Origin: a virus
IMG/VR virus record: IMGVR_UViG_3300020580_000001
Coordinates: 1 to 64,000 of that record
DNA length: 64,000 bases
Strand: one strand, 5' to 3'
Shown: positions 3,581 through 17,961 of the stretch, one piece after another
Layout of the letters: each line of letters begins with the position of its first letter
Numbering within the stretch: position 1 is the first letter of the stretch
The notes under the pieces: model-generated
What the model was told of the DNA's origin: nothing
Seen by the model: only the letters and a program-made list of their open reading frames with translations
Database searches by the model: none
Position numbers and translations under genes: made by a program

Positions 3581-4264
3581 TCACTCATGATTCAGCATCC
3601 CGCGCAGGATTGCGATGTCATCGGCAAGCGTCTTGTCAGTTTCAATCAACTTAATTATTCTTTGTATTGAATGGAGGACCGTCGTATGATCGCGGTTAAA
3701 CCGACGACCTATTTCCGCCATTGTGTTATTCGTCAATTCTTTCGATAGAAAGATAGCTATGTGGCGCGGACGTGCCATACGAGCATAATGTCTAACACAA
3801 ACAATGTCGGCCACGCACAAATTGAAATATCTTGCTGTCACGGCTTGAATGCGTGCGATTGTAGGCTTATCGGATTGTACTTCCGGCTGATAATCAAAGG
3901 GCTGCGCCCGTGTTTGTTCGCTGAAATCGCCGAAATAGTCTGCGCTTTCACGAATACATTCTATAATGTACTTTGTGAGTAAAATTGGGAGGTTGAGATT
4001 ACGCGCTTCTTCCACGCGTTCTTCGACGGACTTGATATTTTGTTGTGGTAATGGCGGGAATGCAGGCGCATGTTTCGGCTCTAGTTCTAGTCCTGGCTGT
4101 GGCTGTGGCACTGGCCGAGTATTAAGTCGTTTCCATATTTGATCGCGCCTTGCTATTAATTCGTCTAAATATGCCGAGCCGGTATGATGTTTGGATCGTA
4201 CCGCGTTAAATGCACCCATATTGGCATGCCTAATTCTGACATAATCGATTGGAGAGTCGGTCAT
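3581..4264 (-). CDS. DnaA C-terminal-like HTH DNA-binding protein
   Basis: ARPRHIAIFLSKELT...IGRRFNRDHTTVLHS is the DnaA domain IV signature; AGGA before ATG 4264. Confidence 0.85.
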   Translation of the reverse strand: MTDSPIDYVRIRHANMGAFNAVRSKHHTGSAYLDELIARRDQIWKRLNTRPVPQPQPGLELEPKHAPAFPPLPQQNIKSVEERVEEARNLNLPILLTKYIIECIRESADYFGDFSEQTRAQPFDYQPEVQSDKPTIARIQAVTARYFNLCVADIVCVRHYARMARPRHIAIFLSKELTNNTMAEIGRRFNRDHTTVLHSIQRIIKLIETDKTLADDIAILRGMLNHE

Positions 4265-6790: not shown

Positions 6791-6843
6791 GTTTCTAAAT
6801 TTGCAACTTTCCGCTTGACTTGTGTGTTTCCGTATTAGATACT
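6791..6843 (+). promoter_or_regulatory. sigma70 promoter overlapped by two operators
   Basis: TTGACT(6815)-N17-GATACT(6838); operators GTTTC-N7-GCAAC (6791-6807) and GTTTC-N7-GATAC (6826-6842). Confidence 0.75.
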
Positions 6844-6989
6844 CTCTCCCATATTCGCGGCGAAAGGAAGCCCTTACAGGGGGATGGAGCCGACGTTTAT
6901 TCGCGGTCGAAGCGGGGAGGCCAAGAATGGCAGTAGCAGCCATAGCGGCCAAAGGCCCGTCGCGAAGAGGAGTGGAACTTGTTGTCGCT

Positions 6990-7595
6990 ATGACCACGAA
7001 CCGATCACCTACCGAAGACGAGTTGCATGATTCTATCCTGCACTCGCTCCGGTTCGTCCTTGGCGGCTTTGGTTCTAGGAATCAAATATACAACAGAGCG
7101 GTTGAGCCTGAACAAATTCATGGCTCGAGTCAGAAGAGGAAAGCTAAATATCGGTTCAATCGCGTATTGGCTGACTTGGAGAGACATGGCCTACTAGAAA
7201 ACTCCAACGGGTTCCTGATCGCCAAGGAAAAACTAGAGGCGGCGGCGGCTAACCGAATATCCAGGCCCGGTGCCGCGTACGCTCGCAGCCCGGCAATCCG
7301 CGCCGCCGTAATGAAACGAGCAAAAGGCAAATGTGAGTTTTGTGGCGAGCCGGGGTTCATGGGAATCGACGGTGCTCCTTATCTGGAATGCCACCACATA
7401 GTTGCTCTCGCTAACGACGGCGTGGACCGAATGATTAACGTCATTGCCATCTGCGCGAACCATCACCGCGAGGCTCACTTCGGGAAACAGCACGACGAGA
7501 TCGAAAAGCGAATGATCCGGATTGTAGAGAAGGCAGAACAATTTCGTTTGGGGCGCTGCGGTCCTCTCTCCGCTCACCCCATTTCTCCGGTATGA
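6990..7595 (+). CDS. HNH endonuclease
   Basis: CEFC...LECHHIVALANDGVD...NVIAICANHHREAH; start codon uncertain. Confidence 0.85.
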   Translation: MTTNRSPTEDELHDSILHSLRFVLGGFGSRNQIYNRAVEPEQIHGSSQKRKAKYRFNRVLADLERHGLLENSNGFLIAKEKLEAAAANRISRPGAAYARSPAIRAAVMKRAKGKCEFCGEPGFMGIDGAPYLECHHIVALANDGVDRMINVIAICANHHREAHFGKQHDEIEKRMIRIVEKAEQFRLGRCGPLSAHPISPV

Positions 7596-10755: not shown

Positions 10756-10957
10756 TGGATGGAGCGATGATGTTTGTTTATTTCGCAATAACGGTCTCTA
10801 CAGTAGGGATAACGATTGCAATCTATTTTTTGGAGGCGAAGCTTAATCGAATAGAGGAGAAGATCGATAGAATCGACGCATGGCTTGCGGAGGCACACCA
10901 TGTTTGAGAATTTCATGCTTGTATGCGTAATCTATGTCCTCGCCTGGATTTTCCAAG

Positions 10958-11461
10958 ATGCCAAATAACATCCAAACATCCGTCCGGATTTATGAGGCGA
11001 TTAAGGAGCAACTTGCATTTGAGCATGATCTTTTGCCGGAGGACCAATGTCTTATCGACACGCTTGACGGGCTAACCGATTTAAATGAGCAAATCGCCGC
11101 GCTTGTTCGCGATGCGGTGCGCGCGAAAGCAATGGCTGATGCTCTCAAGATAATTATCGAGGACAATGCTTCGCGCAAACAACGATTTGAAGCCAAGGCA
11201 GAACGATTGAGGGCTTTGGCACTATGGGCATTGACCGAAGCAAATATTCAGCGCGTCGAGGCGCCCGATATGACCATCTCGCAAGTGCCTGGAAGGCCAT
11301 CTGTTGTCATTACCGACGAAGCGGCTATCCCGGATGAATTCTGTAAACTCATCCGCGTGCCAAAAAAGACTGAAATCGCGGAAGAACTGAAGAGCGGGCG
11401 CTTCGTGCCATATGCGGTCTGGTCAAATCCTGAGAAAGTTTTGAGAGTGCAAACAAAATGA
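10958..11461 (+). CDS. siphovirus Gp157-family (Gam-like) protein
   Basis: DTLDG...coiled coil...[14 protein letters not shown]...[13 protein letters not shown] pattern. Confidence 0.75.
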
Positions 11462-11934
11462 TGCCAAGAGTTCAAAAATCGCTAGCCGAACGTTTTTGGC
11501 CAAAAGTTATTATTGGCGGTAATAATGATTGTTGGCTTTGGGCGGGCGCCAAAGATAGTAATGGATATGGGCGCATACAAGCTATTAACGCACAAGGACA
11601 ATGGCGTGCACAGCTAGCAACACGGATATCTTATATGCTTGCTAACGGTGAACTAGATTCCTCGATCGGCGTTTGCCATCATTGTGACAATCCACAATGT
11701 GTAAATCCAAATCATCTTTTTATTGGATCTCAAGCCGCAAATATGGCTGATGCACAACGCAAGGGTAGGATACCAAACCGAACTACCGGACATTTCCAAG
11801 CTGTAAAAACTCATTGCCCAAGAGGGCACGAATATACCGAAGAAAACACCTACTGGCCACCAGGAAAAAATGAGCGATGGTGTAGAGAGTGTCAGCGCAT
11901 GCACAACCGTAATTTCAAAAGGAAATCATCATGA
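11458..11934 (+). CDS. HNH homing endonuclease
   Basis: [36 protein letters not shown]...CREC. Confidence 0.9.
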
Positions 11935-12355: not shown

Positions 12356-12595
12356 ATGGGTCCGCTCGAAAAAGAAATTGCCGCGTACATAACAGCTACG
12401 CTCGCTCGCATTGCCGCGCCATGGACATCTGCAGCTGATTTGAAATCATGGTGGTTCAGCCAGCGCGAAAAGGACATGCGCGCATCGCTTGTGATCACCG
12501 GAACAACTCCGGAGCATAGACAGCTTTACAATGCTTTCATGGCACGCGGGAATGCGCTCGCGACGGCATCACATATTAGGGGTGGAGCTGAATGA
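12356..12595 (+). CDS. hypothetical protein
   Basis: AAGGA RBS. Confidence 0.55.
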   Translation: MGPLEKEIAAYITATLARIAAPWTSAADLKSWWFSQREKDMRASLVITGTTPEHRQLYNAFMARGNALATASHIRGGAE

Positions 12596-13062
12596 AAGTA
12601 ACCGCAGAGCCACCAATGGCGTTCAAAGCAACATTTGCCAAAATCAATCCGATCATGACTCGCGAGGTGGTTCAATTTATCTTTGAAGTGCCGACGGATG
12701 AAGCGGATGCCGCACTCAAGCTTCTTGGCGGGATGCCAAAATCGCGATCGGAGCGGTGGTGCGCTATTGCGAGGCTTGATTTAGAGCACGGTAACGGCGA
12801 GGAGAAGACAACACATAACCAACATGTGGTTGGTCGCCGTGCCTTCAGTAATCTTCCGTTCCCCCAACAAGCAGGCATCCTAAGCAAAGATGCTGCTTTT
12901 CAATATTGGATAAATGGCGGCTTTCTCTCGGAGCAGGATTGCGCGGCTGGAATCCGGAAACGTTGCGGAGTTGAGTCGCGTTCAGACCTTCAGGCCGGGA
13001 CGCCGGCCGGAGAAAAATGGCTTTCGTTATTACGGGAATTCGAGGGGAGAGAGATACGGTGA
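12592..13062 (+). CDS. hypothetical protein
   Basis: GGAG RBS, ATGA coupling; IRKRCGVESRSDL motif. Confidence 0.65.
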   Translation: MKVTAEPPMAFKATFAKINPIMTREVVQFIFEVPTDEADAALKLLGGMPKSRSERWCAIARLDLEHGNGEEKTTHNQHVVGRRAFSNLPFPQQAGILSKDAAFQYWINGGFLSEQDCAAGIRKRCGVESRSDLQAGTPAGEKWLSLLREFEGREIR

Positions 13063-13158
13063 GCATATTAGGCATTGGATTAACTGTCGCGACAAGCTTT
13101 CTAGCGGGCGTCGGTGTTGGATTCTATATGCTTATCATAGTGATTGGGAGATTGCTTG

Positions 13159-13548
13159 TTGACCCGCCATAATTTCACCAAGGCCACAATGGTCGCCAGT
13201 TTCCAACTCTGCGGGGGCCATTGCGAAGGCGTCCTAAAAACTGGAAAACGCTGCAATGCTGTTCTGGTGCCTGGACGCTGGCATTGTGATCATCATAATC
13301 CTGATGCTCTTGGCGGCCAGCCAACGTTAGAAAATGCAAGATGCCTATGCCTTGAATGCCATGCAGCAAAGACTGGAATCGATATGGCCTACATCGCGCA
13401 ATCCCACCAACGAGAGGCCAAGAATATAGGTGTACCATGGCCAAAGCCATCGATTAAATCACGGGGGTTTCCGAAGGCAGAAAAGCCCAAGCGCGAACAA
13501 CTTCCGCTGCCGCCGCGGAAAGTTGATGCTTATGGAGGGCGGCAATGA
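13159..13548 (+). CDS. HNH endonuclease
   Basis: CEG...C...HCDHHNPDALGGQPTLENARCLCLECHAAKT. Confidence 0.85.
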   Translation: MTRHNFTKATMVASFQLCGGHCEGVLKTGKRCNAVLVPGRWHCDHHNPDALGGQPTLENARCLCLECHAAKTGIDMAYIAQSHQREAKNIGVPWPKPSIKSRGFPKAEKPKREQLPLPPRKVDAYGGRQ

Positions 13549-13581
13549 GATTGCAGTTAACCAACTAAACGAGGATATCAA

Positions 13582-13977
13582 ATGAAAAAGCTTTCAGTTA
13601 TCGCCGTCGCGACTCTTCTAGCATCGCCATCTTATGCCTGGCATGCAATTACTATAACTAACACCACAGATCCAGTGACGGTTGTATCAGCAATATTCAC
13701 CGTCAAGGGCGTCAAGGCCCAGACATTTAATCTCGATCTTCCAGGTGGTCCTGGTTGGTTTCGGGTATTTGGTCCATTGCATGAAGACGGCGGCCCATGC
13801 CTTCGGCACCTTACTATCGTTGTCAGTAATCCATATTTCGGTGTTGCATCTCAAACAGCCGCGACAAAAATGAATGTATGTACTGAGACAGAAATTAATG
13901 TTAGCGGCGTATGGCCGGTAAGCGCATGGCCTTATGGCGGTGTTGGAACGGCACCACTAGTTATCACGCATAGGTAA
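13582..13977 (+). CDS. exported protein with Sec signal peptide
   Basis: MKKLSVIAVATLLASPSYA signal; GAGGA RBS. Confidence 0.75.
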   Translation: MKKLSVIAVATLLASPSYAWHAITITNTTDPVTVVSAIFTVKGVKAQTFNLDLPGGPGWFRVFGPLHEDGGPCLRHLTIVVSNPYFGVASQTAATKMNVCTETEINVSGVWPVSAWPYGGVGTAPLVITHR

Positions 13978-14010
13978 TCATAATGCGCGGTTCGATTAGG
14001 GCGGTTCAGT

Positions 14011-14361
14011 ATGACCCGTGACGAACACCGCGCGAAGTGCATCGAAGTAATGGCTCGAACATGGCTCAAACGACGTGGATACGATATCGACAGCGGCGAC
14101 AATCCATCTCTCGCATGGATTTTAAGACAGACAATTGACGAGCTTGTGGAGGTCTTCGATGCACTTCCTATGGCTGGCGCGCGCGTCGTGCCGGTCGAGG
14201 CGACGGAGGAGATGATCGATGCTGCCAGCAAGACCAAGCGCCCATGGGCTGACTGTTTCGAACTGATGGCTGCCGCTGGCGACCTCACCAATGATCCTGA
14301 TGCAGGATTACCAACCGCCGCCGATGTGCGAGGAATCCTAAAGCCAGATGGCAAGCCATGA
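14011..14361 (+). CDS. cassette ORF 1 (MTRDEHRAKCIE...DLTN...PDGKP)
   Basis: ORF track; carries both repeats. Confidence 0.75.
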   Translation: MTRDEHRAKCIEVMARTWLKRRGYDIDSGDNPSLAWILRQTIDELVEVFDALPMAGARVVPVEATEEMIDAASKTKRPWADCFELMAAAGDLTNDPDAGLPTAADVRGILKPDGKP

Positions 14362-14561
14362 TCCGCATGCCGCCAGTCATAATCGAAGCCCTGCCCCCTG
14401 AAATTTGCCAGCAATGCGGCAAACTGGACGAGCTGCGCCCATATGGAAAACGCCAAGACAACGGCGCCCGCCTATGGATCTGCTTCCGTTGCATGATGCT
14501 GGACGAGGAAGAGGGCAAGCGCGCATTTAATGAGCGGTTCGATGAGGAAGGTTCAGTATGA
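14358..14561 (+). CDS. cassette ORF 2, small CxxC...CxxC Zn-ribbon protein
   Basis: CQQC...ELRPYG...ICFRC; ATGA overlaps. Confidence 0.7.
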   Translation: MIRMPPVIIEALPPEICQQCGKLDELRPYGKRQDNGARLWICFRCMMLDEEEGKRAFNERFDEEGSV

Positions 14562-14665
14562 CCCGTGACGAACACCGCGCTGCTTTCTTCTGGTATTGGC
14601 TTGGCTTCATCATGGGGAGCTTCAGCGTCATGGGCTCACTTGCACTCACGGGACATCTGATATGA
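14558..14665 (+). CDS. cassette ORF 3, 35-aa membrane peptide
   Basis: Hand translation MTRDEHRAAFFWYWLGFIMGSFSVMGSLALTGHLI; ATGA overlap at both ends. Confidence 0.65.
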   Translation: MTRDEHRAAFFWYWLGFIMGSFSVMGSLALTGHLI

Positions 14666-14817
14666 CCCGCGACGAACACCGCGCGAAGTGCATCGAACGT
14701 GCCGCATTAGCTGTGATCAAAGCGACATGGCGAAATCTCGATACAAAGCCATGGCCGCAGAAATACGCAGCCCCATACGGGGCTCTCGTCAAACTACAGA
14801 AAGCGCTTGAACAATGA
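14662..14817 (+). CDS. cassette ORF 4 (51 aa)
   Basis: MTRDEHRAKCIERAAL...KALEQ; ATGA overlaps. Confidence 0.65.
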   Translation: MTRDEHRAKCIERAALAVIKATWRNLDTKPWPQKYAAPYGALVKLQKALEQ

Positions 14818-15077
14818 CCCGCGACGAACACCGCGCGAAGTGCATCGAGGCGATCGCCGACGAGCTTGAGCCGGATTGGCGAAGATTGCAGAAAATTGAT
14901 TGGGCTCATGGGATCGTTGTCCTCCGCAAAGCCGCCCGTATCTTCGACTCCCTTCATGACATCGCGCGCGTTGTGATAGTAGGCGCCGTAATGAGGGCTA
15001 CCATTAGGCAAGATGGTAACTTTGATGTTTGTACCAACGAGGTAGACCTCACCAACCCACCGGAGAGCAAGCCGTGA
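14814..15077 (+). CDS. cassette ORF 5 (paralog of ORF 1)
   Basis: MTRDEHRAKCIE...FDSL...ARVV...DLTNPPESKP. Confidence 0.7.
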   Translation: MTRDEHRAKCIEAIADELEPDWRRLQKIDWAHGIVVLRKAARIFDSLHDIARVVIVGAVMRATIRQDGNFDVCTNEVDLTNPPESKP

Positions 15078-15235
15078 TTCCTATTGCCCTTGCAATATAT
15101 GCCATAGCTATAGCGATAGATCGGTGCTGGAACACACACGACAATGGAGGGTCACCAACAGGAGCGATTTGTTTTTTTGGAATAGTGATCTTTGCCATCC
15201 GCGACCTCACCAACCCACCGGAGAAGAAGCCTTGA
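15074..15235 (+). CDS. cassette ORF 6, small 2-TM protein
   Basis: GTG start inside the repeat; IPIALAIYAIAIAID...AICFFGIVIFAIRDLTNPPEKKP. Confidence 0.65.
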   Translation: MIPIALAIYAIAIAIDRCWNTHDNGGSPTGAICFFGIVIFAIRDLTNPPEKKP

Positions 15236-15363
15236 CGCCGTTCTGGGATCAGCAATCTGGGGCAGCTGGAGGCCTTCTATACGCTCTCGTATGCGCCTCG
15301 CTAATTATGATAATTTTGAGATTGTGGCGCGACCTCACCAACCCGCCGGAGGGCAAGCCGTGA
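15232..15363 (+). CDS. cassette ORF 7, small TM protein
   Basis: TTG start inside the repeat; ...GLLYALVCASLIMIILRLWRDLTNPPEGKP. Confidence 0.65.
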   Translation: MTPFWDQQSGAAGGLLYALVCASLIMIILRLWRDLTNPPEGKP

Positions 15364-15557
15364 GCGAAGCGTACATTTTGATCATAATAGGGTCCGGTGG
15401 CTTACATGGACTTGGCTTCACTGCGACATTCCAAAATAAAGACGCATGTGAGCACGCCCGCGCTACGGCCATGGAAACTTTCACCGGAGAATGGAAATCC
15501 GTTGTGAAATCTATGTGCGTTCCGTACGCCACCAACCCACCGGAGGGCAAGCCGTGA
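15360..15557 (+). CDS. cassette ORF 8
   Basis: GTG start; SEAYILIIIG...FQNKDACEHA...MCVPYATNPPEGKP. Confidence 0.65.
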   Translation: MSEAYILIIIGSGGLHGLGFTATFQNKDACEHARATAMETFTGEWKSVVKSMCVPYATNPPEGKP

Positions 15558-15886
15558 CCAGCACATTAACCGCCGCCGGGATTGCCCTATGCACAACCTT
15601 GATAGGCAACCCAAATCCTAATTATGAAGAGTGCAGTACCGCGATTTCAAGATCGCAGCCGCCAATGGATCAATTTTACAAATCGCCATCTCTAAATGAG
15701 CACTGCCCAGACTCGATGAAGTGCGATCATGAGAAGTGGCCTGACTGCACCGCATGGTCCACCTATGATATTTTAGACGGCTCAAAAGGCACGTCCTATT
15801 TTTGCCGCCGCAACGCAAGGCTGATTTGGCTGCCCGATGGAAGATGGAGCTGGATCGTTGACAGCCCGCCGGAGGGCAAGCCGTGA
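15554..15886 (+). CDS. cassette ORF 9, Cys-rich protein
   Basis: GTG start; six Cys; ends DSPPEGKP. Confidence 0.65.
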   Translation: MTSTLTAAGIALCTTLIGNPNPNYEECSTAISRSQPPMDQFYKSPSLNEHCPDSMKCDHEKWPDCTAWSTYDILDGSKGTSYFCRRNARLIWLPDGRWSWIVDSPPEGKP

Positions 15887-16158
15887 CCCCGCTACGCCCG
15901 CGGGATATTGCCGCCCGGTGGCAGTGCAGCGAACGCCATATTCTTAATCTCATTCGCTGGCACGACTTGCCAGCCTTTCGAATTGGAGGCAAATTGCTTC
16001 GCGTTCCCCTAGACGCCGTTGAGGCATATGAGAGATGTCACCTAAATTCAGGCTCATCAAATACCGCGGATGGTTCTATGCCGCATGGCGGGAGGACGGA
16101 GTCTCGCGCCGCAAAGCGCTCCGTACCCGCGATCGTGAATCTGCCGAGCAAACGCTAA
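15883..16158 (+). CDS. xis: excisionase (HTH_17 type)
   Basis: LRPRDIAARWQCSERHILNLI...LPAFRIGGKLLRVPLDAVEAYE; overlaps int. Confidence 0.85.
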   Translation: MTPLRPRDIAARWQCSERHILNLIRWHDLPAFRIGGKLLRVPLDAVEAYERCHLNSGSSNTADGSMPHGGRTESRAAKRSVPAIVNLPSKR

Positions 16159-17066
16159 AGTCTTTCACCGCCGCATTCGAAATCGCCAATAGGCCAGAAA
16201 TTATCACTGTGGAGTATTGTTGGAATGGGTATCGCGAGACGCTTAAAGGAAGACCTGCATTTTCGACTATGGGCTTTGAAGCAAAGTCTGTTCTTCCTTT
16301 TTTTGGCTCTCTCGACGCCATATCAATTTCGGAAGACGACTGCAGGACTTACCTTGTCAAGCGCCAAGTGGCAGGCCGCGCATCTGGTACTGTATGGACC
16401 GAGCTTGGCCGACTCCGATCGGCACTGAAATGGGCAGAACGGAAAAACTTAATCGCGAAGGCCCCGGCAATCTACCGGCCGCCGATGCCGCCGCCGCGGG
16501 ACTTAAGGTTGACGCGCGAACAGGCAAAATCATTTTTGACGGCCGCCAAAATGCCCCACGTCCGCCTATTTACTTTACTAGCTATGACGACTGGCGCGCG
16601 TATGAGTGCATTGTTAGGGCTCACTTGGGATCGTGTGGACTTCACTGGACGCTTAATCGATTTAGCCGATCCGGGGCGCCCGAAGACTAAGAAAGGAAGG
16701 GCCGTGGTGCCGATCAACCGGACGCTAATGGCGGCCCTCCAGGAAGCCAGCGCTGGTGCTCTGACGCCCTATGTCATCGAATGGGCAGGGCACCCGGTCA
16801 AGGAGGTCAAACATGCCTTGGCGAGCGTTGGAAGGCGATGCGGCTTGCCCTGGGTGACGGCGCACGTGTTTCGTCACTCGGTTGCCTCGTGGCTCGCGGA
16901 AGATGGGGTGAGCATGGAGAAGATCGCCGAATTGCTTGGGCACGCAGACAGCCGCACGACCTACAAAACCTATGTGCGGTTCACGCCAGATTTCTTACGC
17001 GACGCGGCCGAGGCGCTGGAGATCGACGCGTTCAAACAAGATGTGCGCCGCAATGCTAATTCTTAA
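16035..17066 (+). CDS. int: tyrosine recombinase / phage integrase
   Basis: TTGARMS (R), KTKKG (K), HVFRH, LLGH, TYKTY (Y) catalytic set. Confidence 0.95.
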   Translation: MSPKFRLIKYRGWFYAAWREDGVSRRKALRTRDRESAEQTLKSFTAAFEIANRPEIITVEYCWNGYRETLKGRPAFSTMGFEAKSVLPFFGSLDAISISEDDCRTYLVKRQVAGRASGTVWTELGRLRSALKWAERKNLIAKAPAIYRPPMPPPRDLRLTREQAKSFLTAAKMPHVRLFTLLAMTTGARMSALLGLTWDRVDFTGRLIDLADPGRPKTKKGRAVVPINRTLMAALQEASAGALTPYVIEWAGHPVKEVKHALASVGRRCGLPWVTAHVFRHSVASWLAEDGVSMEKIAELLGHADSRTTYKTYVRFTPDFLRDAAEALEIDAFKQDVRRNANS

Positions 17067-17291
17067 GAGGCTGATAGCCGTATGTTTGGCGTCGATTCTG
17101 TTTGTCGCTTATTGGGCCGGATTTATCATCGCTGAGAATGACGCATATACTCATGGCCATAACGGCTTCGTGCATGATCCTACTGGAATACTCTTATATG
17201 TTGCAGCGGTACTCCTAAGCGTAATTTCGATACCGATTCTGGTCTGGCTTTGGGAGTAACTCTCGCGGCGCAGCCGAGGCGCTGGAGATCG
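16998..17291 (+). repeat. 28-bp direct repeat of the int 3' end
   Basis: CGCGACGCGGCCGAGGCGCTGGAGATCG (16998-17025) vs CGCGGCGCAGCCGAGGCGCTGGAGATCG (17264-17291), 2 mismatches. Confidence 0.9.
17053..17259 (+). CDS. small 2-TM membrane protein flanked by direct repeats
   Basis: MLILKRLIAVCLASILFVAYWAGFII...ILLYVAAVLLSVISIPILVWLWE. Confidence 0.65.
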   Translation: MLILKRLIAVCLASILFVAYWAGFIIAENDAYTHGHNGFVHDPTGILLYVAAVLLSVISIPILVWLWE

Positions 17292-17427
17292 GCATGGCTC
17301 ACTCAATGCGGAGTGGCCGGGAGGCAAAATGAACTCGATGAAAGAACGCACCGTGCCGGAAACGGCGTCAGATGCCGAACAAATTTCTGTAAACGAAGCC
17401 AAAAGCCCTTAGATTCCATTGGGGCCG

Positions 17428-17439
17428 CTCCCTTGGTAA
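17428..17439 (+). other. candidate attP core (tRNA-Thr GGT anticodon-arm sequence)
   Basis: CTCCCTTGGTAA downstream of int resembles the 5' anticodon stem plus loop of alphaproteobacterial tRNA-Thr(GGT) as I recall it. Confidence 0.5.
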
Positions 17440-17474
17440 AAGAGTGGCCGCCACAGCTAACTGCGGTTTTTGAC

Positions 17475-17549
17475 GCCGCCGTAGCTTAGGGGTAAAGCAT
17501 TGCTTTGGTAAAGCAAAGACCGGAAGTTCGAGTCTTCCCGGCGGCACCA
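17475..17549 (+). tRNA. tRNA-Thr(GGT)
   Basis: Full cloverleaf: GCCGCCG/CGGCGGC acceptor, GCTT/AAGC D-stem, TTGCT-TTGGTAA-AGCAA anticodon arm, GGAAG-TTCGAGT-CTTCC T-arm, ACCA end. Confidence 0.93.
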
Positions 17550-17628
17550 TTTCTCAAACGGTTGGGTGTTCATTTTGGGTGCTGTCCTAATTTGCCGCTG
17601 GGTGTCCGAATTTGAGAGAAGTGGTGTC

Positions 17629-17961
17629 CTAAGTTGATTTTTGCTTCTCTTCGGATTCCTTAATCATTTTCTTGAGTATCTCGGCAGTAGCTGGCGAGAC
17701 CTGTATTTCTACCCCAGAAATTTTTTCCACATGCTCAATAATAGACTTGAGACTAATGTAGAGTGTTTTCATGGCTGGGGGCGTCATGAAAACCGCTACC
17801 TGTTCTTGCATCCCCTTATTGTGGTCGGCCGCATCATGTGCTACCCCAAAACGCACACATAGATCTGCCCCACTAAACTGCATTGCAAATGCATTGCAAT
17901 ACACAAAGCGAAAATCTATTGCATGTGTATTTTGCGTGGTCGCTAGATATGGTTCAGACAT
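17629..17961 (-). CDS. DUF3467-like protein (third gene of TA module)
   Basis: VYCNAF...DLCVRFG...VAVFMTPPAMKTL...IEHVEK pattern resembles DUF3467. Confidence 0.6.
   Translation of the reverse strand: MSEPYLATTQNTHAIDFRFVYCNAFAMQFSGADLCVRFGVAHDAADHNKGMQEQVAVFMTPPAMKTLYISLKSIIEHVEKISGVEIQVSPATAEILKKMIKESEEKQKST

Follow-up and report, generated by a model that had tools for sequence, protein, structure and literature searches.

Shared gene ends join a chain of small accessory genes upstream of the excisionase gene in a soil phage

In lambdoid phages, short conserved sequences at gene boundaries have been described in connection with the modular exchange of Susskind and Botstein, and two models of mosaicism have been discussed for them (PMC3029335). 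Mycobacteriophage Island3 offers a related case at gp67/gp68, where the last 18 residues (~50 bp) of an orphan gene duplicate the end of the gene upstream, a finding that was read as an insertion/deletion by recombination (PMC3029335). T4-type phages carry PeSL elements, each an intergenic early promoter plus a stem-loop terminator between non-essential ORFans, and exchange at these elements shuffles the genes, with mini-circles having been shown (PMC2839356, PMC4122927). Cluster K phages carry start-associated sequences (SAS), which are 13 bp long, asymmetric, present in ~10-20 copies per genome and mostly intergenic, with a Shine-Dalgarno (SD) core 3-7 bp before start codons in the genome's non-structural half and with conserved positions that are unpaired with rRNA (PMC3203893). 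Here we describe an array of nine short open reading frames (ORFs; o1 to o9, positions 14011-15886, + strand) directly preceding the excisionase gene xis of a soil phage. The array lies in a window of 64,000 nt, the first 64 kb of an 82,780-bp IMG/VR phage record (IMGVR_UViG_3300020580_000001) that has direct terminal repeats and is rated complete. Four of the ORFs begin with one shared sequence, the head, and five end in another, the tail. In our judgement the array is probably a hyperplastic stretch of accessory genes in a temperate soil phage, lying where the early operon ends next to xis and shuffled by recombination among the termini of paralogs.

As with the lambdoid boundary sequences, the junctions of this array are conserved, are common to unrelated genes, lie in an early accessory region next to xis and the integrase gene int, and appear as exchange points. 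Unlike those boundaries, they are coding sequence from the two termini (N and C) of a single multi-copy family, they mark both ends of the unit, they stand up to five in a row, and they belong to uncultured soil phages of a different phage group and host range. Differences in gene content that break within a shared short sequence, the pattern by which boundary sequences are recognized, were found between two nearly identical relatives (L103 and L129), in a soil contig from sequencing run X3, in a gene fusion of the relative L142, and in a 33-nt tail common to L142 and a further relative, L060; all are described below. Whereas the Island3 case is a single event, sharing of the 3' end occurs here five times, is accompanied by sharing of the 5' end, and is seen in several related phages. 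The PeSL likewise are small conserved modules in a hyperplastic region that act as exchange points; our junctions differ from them in being coding stop/SD/start junctions with no hairpins, no terminator and a single weak promoter-like site, and in being known from sequence alone. The tail further resembles the SAS in being a repeat with an SD core shortly before the starts of genes of different families, but it is 21-36 nt long, encodes the end of the upstream protein, is confined to one chain and is unrelated to SAS in sequence. What marks this case is that both ends of one family serve as handles, that five tails follow in a row, and that the arrangement recurs across a clade of soil phages. 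We therefore regard the array as a clear and unusually dense example of known phage accessory-gene shuffling, and not as a new class of genetic device.

The array forms the end of a long + strand early operon and is followed by xis (15883..16158, +; HTH_17 excisionase-type, PF12728, E = 4.8e-8), a tyrosine integrase gene (int, 16035..17066, +) and a tRNA-Thr gene. Nine short ORFs and then xis are joined by 4-nt NTGA stop/start overlaps (ATGA, GTGA or TTGA) from 14011 to 16158, and every coordinate of this chain given in the original prediction, which had been made by inspection of the letters, checks out. The ORFs encode 116, 67, 35, 51, 87, 53, 43, 65 and 110 residues and start at 14011, 14358, 14558, 14662, 14814, 15074, 15232, 15360 and 15554, with xis starting at 15883 on a GTG inside the GTGA of o9. 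It is also true that all start-to-start distances are 2 modulo 3, as had been pointed out, but this is an arithmetical result of the 4-nt overlaps and no independent observation. By a junction-linking script, no other chain in the 82,780-bp genome is as long as this one with its 9 junctions; the runner-up has 5 and mononucleotide shuffles reach 2-3. On the + strand no terminator-like site was found inside the array, and the only promoter-like site there is the weak one already mentioned.

The 5' repeat (ATGACCCGYGACGAACACCGCGC) is present in four copies, at 14011-14045 (the start of o1), 14558-14580, 14662-14696 and 14814-14848, and the 3' repeat (CCNCCGGAGNNNAAGCCNTGA) in five, at 15042-15077 (the end of o5), 15200-15235, 15328-15363, 15528-15557 and 15863-15886. 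All of these copies are on the + strand and within the array, and neither repeat occurs elsewhere in the genome (chance expectation for the 3' repeat, 0.05). A split copy of the tail lies in o1 (14281-14292 plus 14344-14361, +). Four shared starts and five shared ends had been reported correctly, as repeats of 23-35 bp and 27-33 bp; the shared extent is not fixed, running to 23-35 nt in the heads and 21-36 nt in the tails, and an extra 30 nt is shared upstream of o1. These 30 nt (13981..14010, +) are the relic of an o2-like gene end, homologous to the last 10 codons of o2 (14528-14557) and carrying an in-frame TAG; relic plus o1 head make up a 53-nt repeat, at 92% identity, with the 3' end of o2 plus the o3 head. 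GC content is 0.60-0.75 in the repeats and 0.44-0.58 in the bodies between them, and the bodies are accordingly AT-richer, as had been noted, relative to the GC-rich repeats, but not set apart from the genome mean of 0.50. The four heads of the window phage are nearly identical in DNA (35/36 nt) even though o1 and o5 are only ~31% identical as proteins, whereas the heads in L142 differ at synonymous sites. The near-identity of the heads fits recent exchange or gene conversion in the window phage.

On the evidence of alignments and profile searches, the two repeats are not dedicated sites but the conserved ends, N- and C-terminal, of a single phage protein family that is uncharacterised. The family consensus reads MTRDEHRAKCIEAM ... 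FDSLHGIARVxPxEATEEM ... AMSAAGDLTNPPExKP-stop. ORFs o1, o5 and part of o4 align with one another, and also with the gene that immediately precedes xis in the related locus L104. A hidden Markov model (HMM) of the family recognizes o1 (14011..14361, +; 116 aa, a full-length MTRDEHRAKCIE...GDLTNPPExKP member) at E = 1.7e-27, o5 (14814..15077, +; 87 aa, tail DLTNPPESKP-stop) at E = 6.9e-23 and o4 (14662..14817, +; 51 aa) at E = 2.5e-6, and gives no match for o2, o3 and o6-o9. The suggestion that o1 and o5 represent the ancestral type of gene is thus upheld, both of them belonging to a large family. In o1 the tail is split by an insertion of 16 codons (DLTN / DPDAGLPTAADVRGILK / PDGKP-stop). ORF o5 has a canonical N-half, a C-half that has diverged after ARVV, and a canonical tail, and o4 is a truncated member made up of the head and ~30 residues of helix 1, with no tail.

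A profile built from o1, o5 and their relatives matched 170 proteins in a collection of 5.8e9, and 340 cluster representatives in one of 1.84e9 (195 at E <= 1e-10). Nearly all matches start MTRDEHRAKCIE and stop directly after PPExKP, such that the end of the profile is the end of the protein; they are mostly metagenomic, and the sole name given to them in any source is 'hypothetical protein'. The family is spread over hundreds of phages, mostly in one or two copies. No match was found in Pfam or PHROG, nor was there any match of the profile among PDB sequences, and the protein atlas returned unnamed viral clusters only. An AlphaFold2 (AF2) model of o1 computed on the family alignment is all-helical at a predicted local distance difference test score (pLDDT) of 88, with the tail unstructured (pLDDT 59-68), and a Foldseek search of this model against PDB and BFVD gave no match at E <= 0.001. 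A sizeable uncharacterised phage family is thereby defined, with a confident helical model and no known fold match, and in the related soil phages with DNA at hand it adjoins xis.

The other bodies of the array are of a different kind. An all-against-all blastp comparison of the cassettes of six phages found no similarity among bodies beyond heads and tails, and by this comparison o3 (head only) and o6-o9 (tail only) are chimeras, family ends carried on unrelated bodies. The view that all bodies apart from those of o1 and o5 are unrelated therefore stands beyond the shared ends, except that it had missed o4 as a truncated family member. In o3 (14558..14665, +; 35 aa), eight head codons (MTRDEHRA) precede the hydrophobic body AFFWYWLGFIMG..., in which the 21 nt for AFFWYWL are identical to a segment inside a family gene of L142. 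The tail-bearing chimeras begin with o6 (15074..15235, +; 53 aa), whose GTG start lies within the GTGA of o5 and whose hydrophobic body runs into the family tail RDLTNPPEKKP-stop. This is followed by o7 (15232..15363, +; 43 aa), starting on a TTG within the TTGA of o6 and combining a transmembrane-like body with the tail RDLTNPPEGKP-stop, by o8 (15360..15557, +; 65 aa), with the tail ATNPPEGKP-stop, and by o9 (15554..15886, +; 110 aa), which has a hydrophobic N-terminus, is Cys-rich and carries the tail SPPEGKP. ORF o2 (14358..14561, +; 67 aa), zinc-ribbon-like with a CxxC...CxxC pattern (phrog_18256, E = 1.2e-6), has neither head nor tail; it starts in AAGCCATGA of o1 and ends in the ATGA of the o3 head.

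Two of the tail-bearing bodies have homologues elsewhere. That of o8 has a single close one (P0126, 83%), which possesses the tail-like end ATSPLEGKP. For o9 there are three, two of which (P0122, 73%; P0123, 64%) share the body up to GRWSW, keep the cysteines, and then end in SLDNESDN or KFDDKP with no family tail. Since these homologues lack it, the SPPEGKP tail of o9 is an addition made in the lineage of the window phage. P0126 is encoded together with P0039 and P0015 on one 1875-nt contig, and P0029, P0038, P0072 and P0123 are encoded on NCBI contigs. A resemblance of o8 to L103 1879-2064, suspected by eye, received no support from blastp at E <= 1. Several of the cargo peptides are of membrane type and, although this is a guess, they might have roles in host interaction or exclusion.

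What the tail brings to the gene that follows can be read from its last seven codons (CCN CCG GAG NNN AAG CCR TGA), which hold the SD sequence GGAG, a 7-nt spacer and the overlapping R/TTG start, so that every tail constitutes a ready-made translational-coupling junction. All five tails, which precede five genes unrelated to one another, place GGAG at a distance of 7 nt from the overlapping start, and xis itself has GGAGGG 7 nt upstream of its GTG, supplied by the last tail. The expectation that the tail gives both GGAG and start codon to the next gene, xis included, is in agreement with these data. The NTGA overlap was present at every family-end copy with DNA at hand except those in L148 and at L042 1758-2042. 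As far as can be read from the letters, the family ends would serve as homology handles and translation junctions at the same time, so that bodies joined to them would be expressed at once. No inverted repeats were found at the junctions, the predicted RNA folds at 12 junctions have energies like those of shuffles (z -1.4 to +2.0), and a search of Rfam over 13000-17700 matched only the tRNA, with nothing of CRISPR type.

With Int as the anchor we gathered ~25 related loci from IMG/VR and JGI metagenomes, and the family HMM, run over every locus gathered by whatever route, found members in L042, L060, L104/L131, L142 and L148. Pattern searches of IMG/VR contributed less: the exact 3' pattern gave 92 single, chance-level matches, among which L042 and L060 are real relatives, the back-translated tail gave one match, and the exact and back-translated 5' patterns gave none. 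No match to 13900-16100 was found by blastn among GenBank phages, and a host search in GTDB genomes with the Int profile and with the head pattern found no matches.

Whether relatives carry different bodies between the same ends had been set beforehand as a test, and relatives reached through Int (64-76% identity) or through the tail pattern do so, as seen in L142, L060, L042, L104, the pair L103/L129 and the X3 contig. L142, with an Int of 75% identity, contains three genes of the family, a further three ORFs that combine a head with a new body, and a single ORF with a tail alone before xis; some of these family genes and chimeras lie 2-3 kb from xis/int on the far side of ATPase and SSB genes. 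One of its ORFs (3655-3993) is an in-frame fusion, MTHDEHRK-AFFWYWL-RAKCIE, of an o3-like start to a family gene. L060 combines a gene of the family with a CxxC body that ends in GDLTNPPEQKP and with a pair of membrane peptides before xis. The 33-nt tail of this body matches, letter for letter, that of a full-length family member in L142; the arrangement in L042 is like that of L060. In L104 the family is represented by one gene, with a tail leading into an xis whose first residues, VNRDERD, are a head remnant. A membrane-gene cassette of 269 nt separates L103 from L129, which are nearly identical in other respects; it is bordered by AAGAAGCC(A/G)T, which is the tail core. In these comparisons, differences in gene content among relatives break at the shared family ends.

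We also compared contigs of four soil sequencing runs with 12500-17500; these are assembled contigs, in which rare deletion variants are not visible. In run X3, one contig passes straight from an o1-type end into an o5-type head, lacking o2-o4; further on, its o5 N-half continues as the C-half of o1, the switch falling at the ARVV codons that both genes share. Protein P0015 is exactly this X3-type hybrid, an o5 N-half on a canonical C-half. In run X1, the probable source of the phage, the unitig over o1-o2 (14004-14579) has a k-mer depth of 28.2 against 36-37 in its flanks. This dip might, as a weak hint, point to a subpopulation that has lost the stretch between the two 53-nt repeats (at 13981 and 14528), in a k=31 graph that cannot show the joint.

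Several paralogs lying side by side, together with the same ends in co-infecting related phages, would offer a substrate for recombination. Homologous recombination would act between shared ends of 20-50 nt, and illegitimate or microhomology-mediated recombination elsewhere, giving unequal exchanges, deletions, in-frame fusions and replaced gene bodies. The products would be head-only genes such as o3, tail-only genes such as o6-o9 and half family genes such as o4 and o5, and selection would keep the junctions since the whole chain down to xis then stays translated without gaps. The array is, in short, a recombination-prone mosaic with reusable junction modules and not a device with its own recombinase. 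It shows unusually plainly how tiny accessory genes arise in phages and are traded among them.

Several points weigh against this reading. Recombination is deduced by comparing sequences, no event having been caught directly; there are only ~6 related loci with DNA, mostly metagenome fragments; the small ORFs are known as predicted frames only; and the phage has a Mu Gam-like gene and several HNH endonucleases, but no recombinase was identified among the genes scanned. In addition, GAC CTC ACC AAC in the tail hardly vary among 15 copies taken from 6 phages. These are minor codons in the genome (CTC 15%, ACC 22%), and where these phages have the same residue, the identity of their codons is only 0.5-0.6 for int and 0.6-0.7 for xis. 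The copies that do carry synonymous tail changes are the two lying away from an ORF end (L148 and L042 1758-2042). Shared ancestry and selection on the ribosome-binding site (RBS) are not obviously enough for conservation so far upstream, and an extra function at the nucleotide or peptide level may therefore exist. The conservation of the tail codons may reflect frequent exchange, or it may reflect such an added function.

A function at the peptide level would make head and tail portable tags, the tail a C-terminal motif for recognition, degradation or partner binding and the head a targeting signal as in T4 internal proteins. The N- and C-terminal motifs are indeed extremely conserved over hundreds of members, DLTN is too far upstream to belong to an RBS and yet sits on the unrelated bodies of o6, o7, L060 12627-12824 and L142 6700-6849, and the tail is unstructured in the AF2 model (pLDDT 59-68), as would be expected of a linear motif. 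On the other hand, the variable 'x' and the exact stop after KP suit an RBS spacer better; the tails of chimeras shrink to PPEGKP or PEKKP (o9, L103), which is the RBS part, and head remnants shrink to 4-8 residues. Tags would also leave the strong conservation at synonymous sites unexplained, and they have no known partner or protease. We consider this explanation unlikely, if worth keeping in mind.

It is speculative, and we would not put it higher than the peptide tags, that the tail of ~33 nt (GAC CTC ACC AAC CCR CCG GAG NNN AAG CCR TGA) is an expression module that can move from gene to gene and whose nucleotide sequence is itself under selection. In it a phage or host factor, or the ribosome itself pausing on Pro-Pro-Glu three codons before the stop, would hand ribosomes onward to the next gene. 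If this were true, any body joined to the tail, on either side of it, would enter a stoichiometrically coupled chain that ends in xis, and accessory content would be tied to the control of excision.

A related proposal, and in our opinion a rather improbable one, treats the tail as a nucleotide-level element of translation control like the cluster K SAS, with a factor of phage or host co-regulating the genes that follow, xis among them, and recombination a mere by-product. The near-invariance of GAC CTC ACC AAC CCR CCG GAG in 6 phages whose codons otherwise show a background identity of 0.5-0.6 speaks for it, as does the fact that the copies away from ORF ends (L148 and L042 1758-2042) are the ones with synonymous changes. 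SAS likewise hold AGGAG 3-7 bp before unrelated starts and have conserved non-SD positions (PMC3203893). The ~15 copies are not independent, however, and no candidate factor and no RNA structure were found for them; moreover, the 5 copies in this genome are in one operon only and not spread over the early genes.

The original prediction had pictured the locus as a plug-in device, CRISPR- or integron-like in layout, and this picture is not supported. Its integron-like form would be a dedicated system for cassette capture, with fixed recombination sites used by Int or another site-specific enzyme. What the array has in common with integrons is a series of same-orientation, promoterless single-ORF units beside a tyrosine recombinase gene, with content that varies among relatives and indels at the repeats. 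Unlike integron cassettes, however, its units have no attC-like palindrome or hairpin, no inverted repeat and no stable fold (z around 0), and their boundaries are not fixed, with shared lengths of 21-53 nt and differing breakpoints. The repeats are gene parts, namely the coding termini of a family that is mostly single-gene in other phages; the array begins with a decayed relic (13981-14010); and in L142 family genes and chimeras are found also 2-3 kb from xis/int, beyond replication genes. Unlike IntI, Int is co-directional with the array, lies downstream of it and has an HTH_17 excisionase as its partner, and the sequences related to it are phage-contig integrases (an IntI-specific insertion was not examined). 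It is thus an ordinary phage integrase with its xis, near a tRNA gene, and the rearrangements show no tie to it. The array differs from a CRISPR array in that the repeats are coding, of 21-53 nt and of two kinds, with a spacing of 104 to 547 nt and no Rfam CRISPR match, no search having been aimed at cas genes. Taken together, we judge a dedicated capture system to be very improbable. Equally improbable is that the array is the decay debris of tandem family duplicates and insertions, with frames open only since it is recent: the clear relic at 13981-14010, the degenerate look of the o5 C-half beside P0015, and the absence of homologues beyond head and tail for o3, o4, o6 and o7 (35-53 aa; the search of the large protein collection covered o8 and o9 only) would agree with this, but nine consecutive intact NTGA junctions with no broken frame are unlikely in debris, o8 and o9 have homologues at 64-83% identity with the o9 cysteines kept, and tiny membrane peptides ending PP(E/K)xKP before xis recur in L060 and L042.

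Some features of the surroundings deserve mention beside the mosaic of accessory genes. The same early operon contains several HNH endonuclease genes (6822-7592, 11458-11931 and 13144-13548) and a Mu Gam-like end-protection gene (10934-11458). One HNH gene is ~450 nt upstream of the array, and double-strand breaks made by such endonucleases could stimulate recombination there. Directly upstream of the array, at 13582-13977, is a 131-aa ORF with an N-terminal signal-peptide-like segment (MKKLSVIAVATLLASPSYAW) and no PHROG match, which appears to have displaced most of an o2-like gene. At the other end, the 3' end of xis overlaps int by 124 nt in another frame. L103, L104, L142 and L060 show this overlap too, their xis ending in ...LPSKR-stop far within int. 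Both frames are open across the relatives, and this may be genuine dual coding. The idea that the repeats are arm sites for Int or Xis was considered and dropped, as they are found neither near the tRNA/att side of int nor elsewhere in the genome.

ORF o1 contains a perfect 14-nt inverted repeat (14034-14047 / 14154-14167) that is absent from o5, the head codons for KCIE being the reverse complement of the codons of the FDAL motif 106 nt downstream; it may be a chance occurrence or a local mRNA hairpin. Starts of the form MT- straight out of an NTGA overlap are found in many early genes, here and in the relatives, and over the whole genome ATGACCC occurs 13 times on the + strand versus 3 times on the - strand ([AG]TGACC, 53 versus 33).

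In more distant Int relatives (L105 5652-5852, L107 5547-5849, L134, L136-L138, L145 and L146) a different conserved small gene stands directly before xis. It ends LPDLTEPQE-stop with an ATGA overlap and shows ordinary synonymous variation (GAT/GAC CTT ACG). It may be a remote cousin of the family, though the family profile (A4) did not detect it. A further set of small-protein copies, beginning M(T/S)(Q/K/E)F(H/R)(E/D)GQ(E/D)VEV, is present at 2484-2855 and 3732-3977 in L104 and at 1063-1398 and 1592-1855 in L142. Mini-gene families in several copies abound in this phage clade in general.

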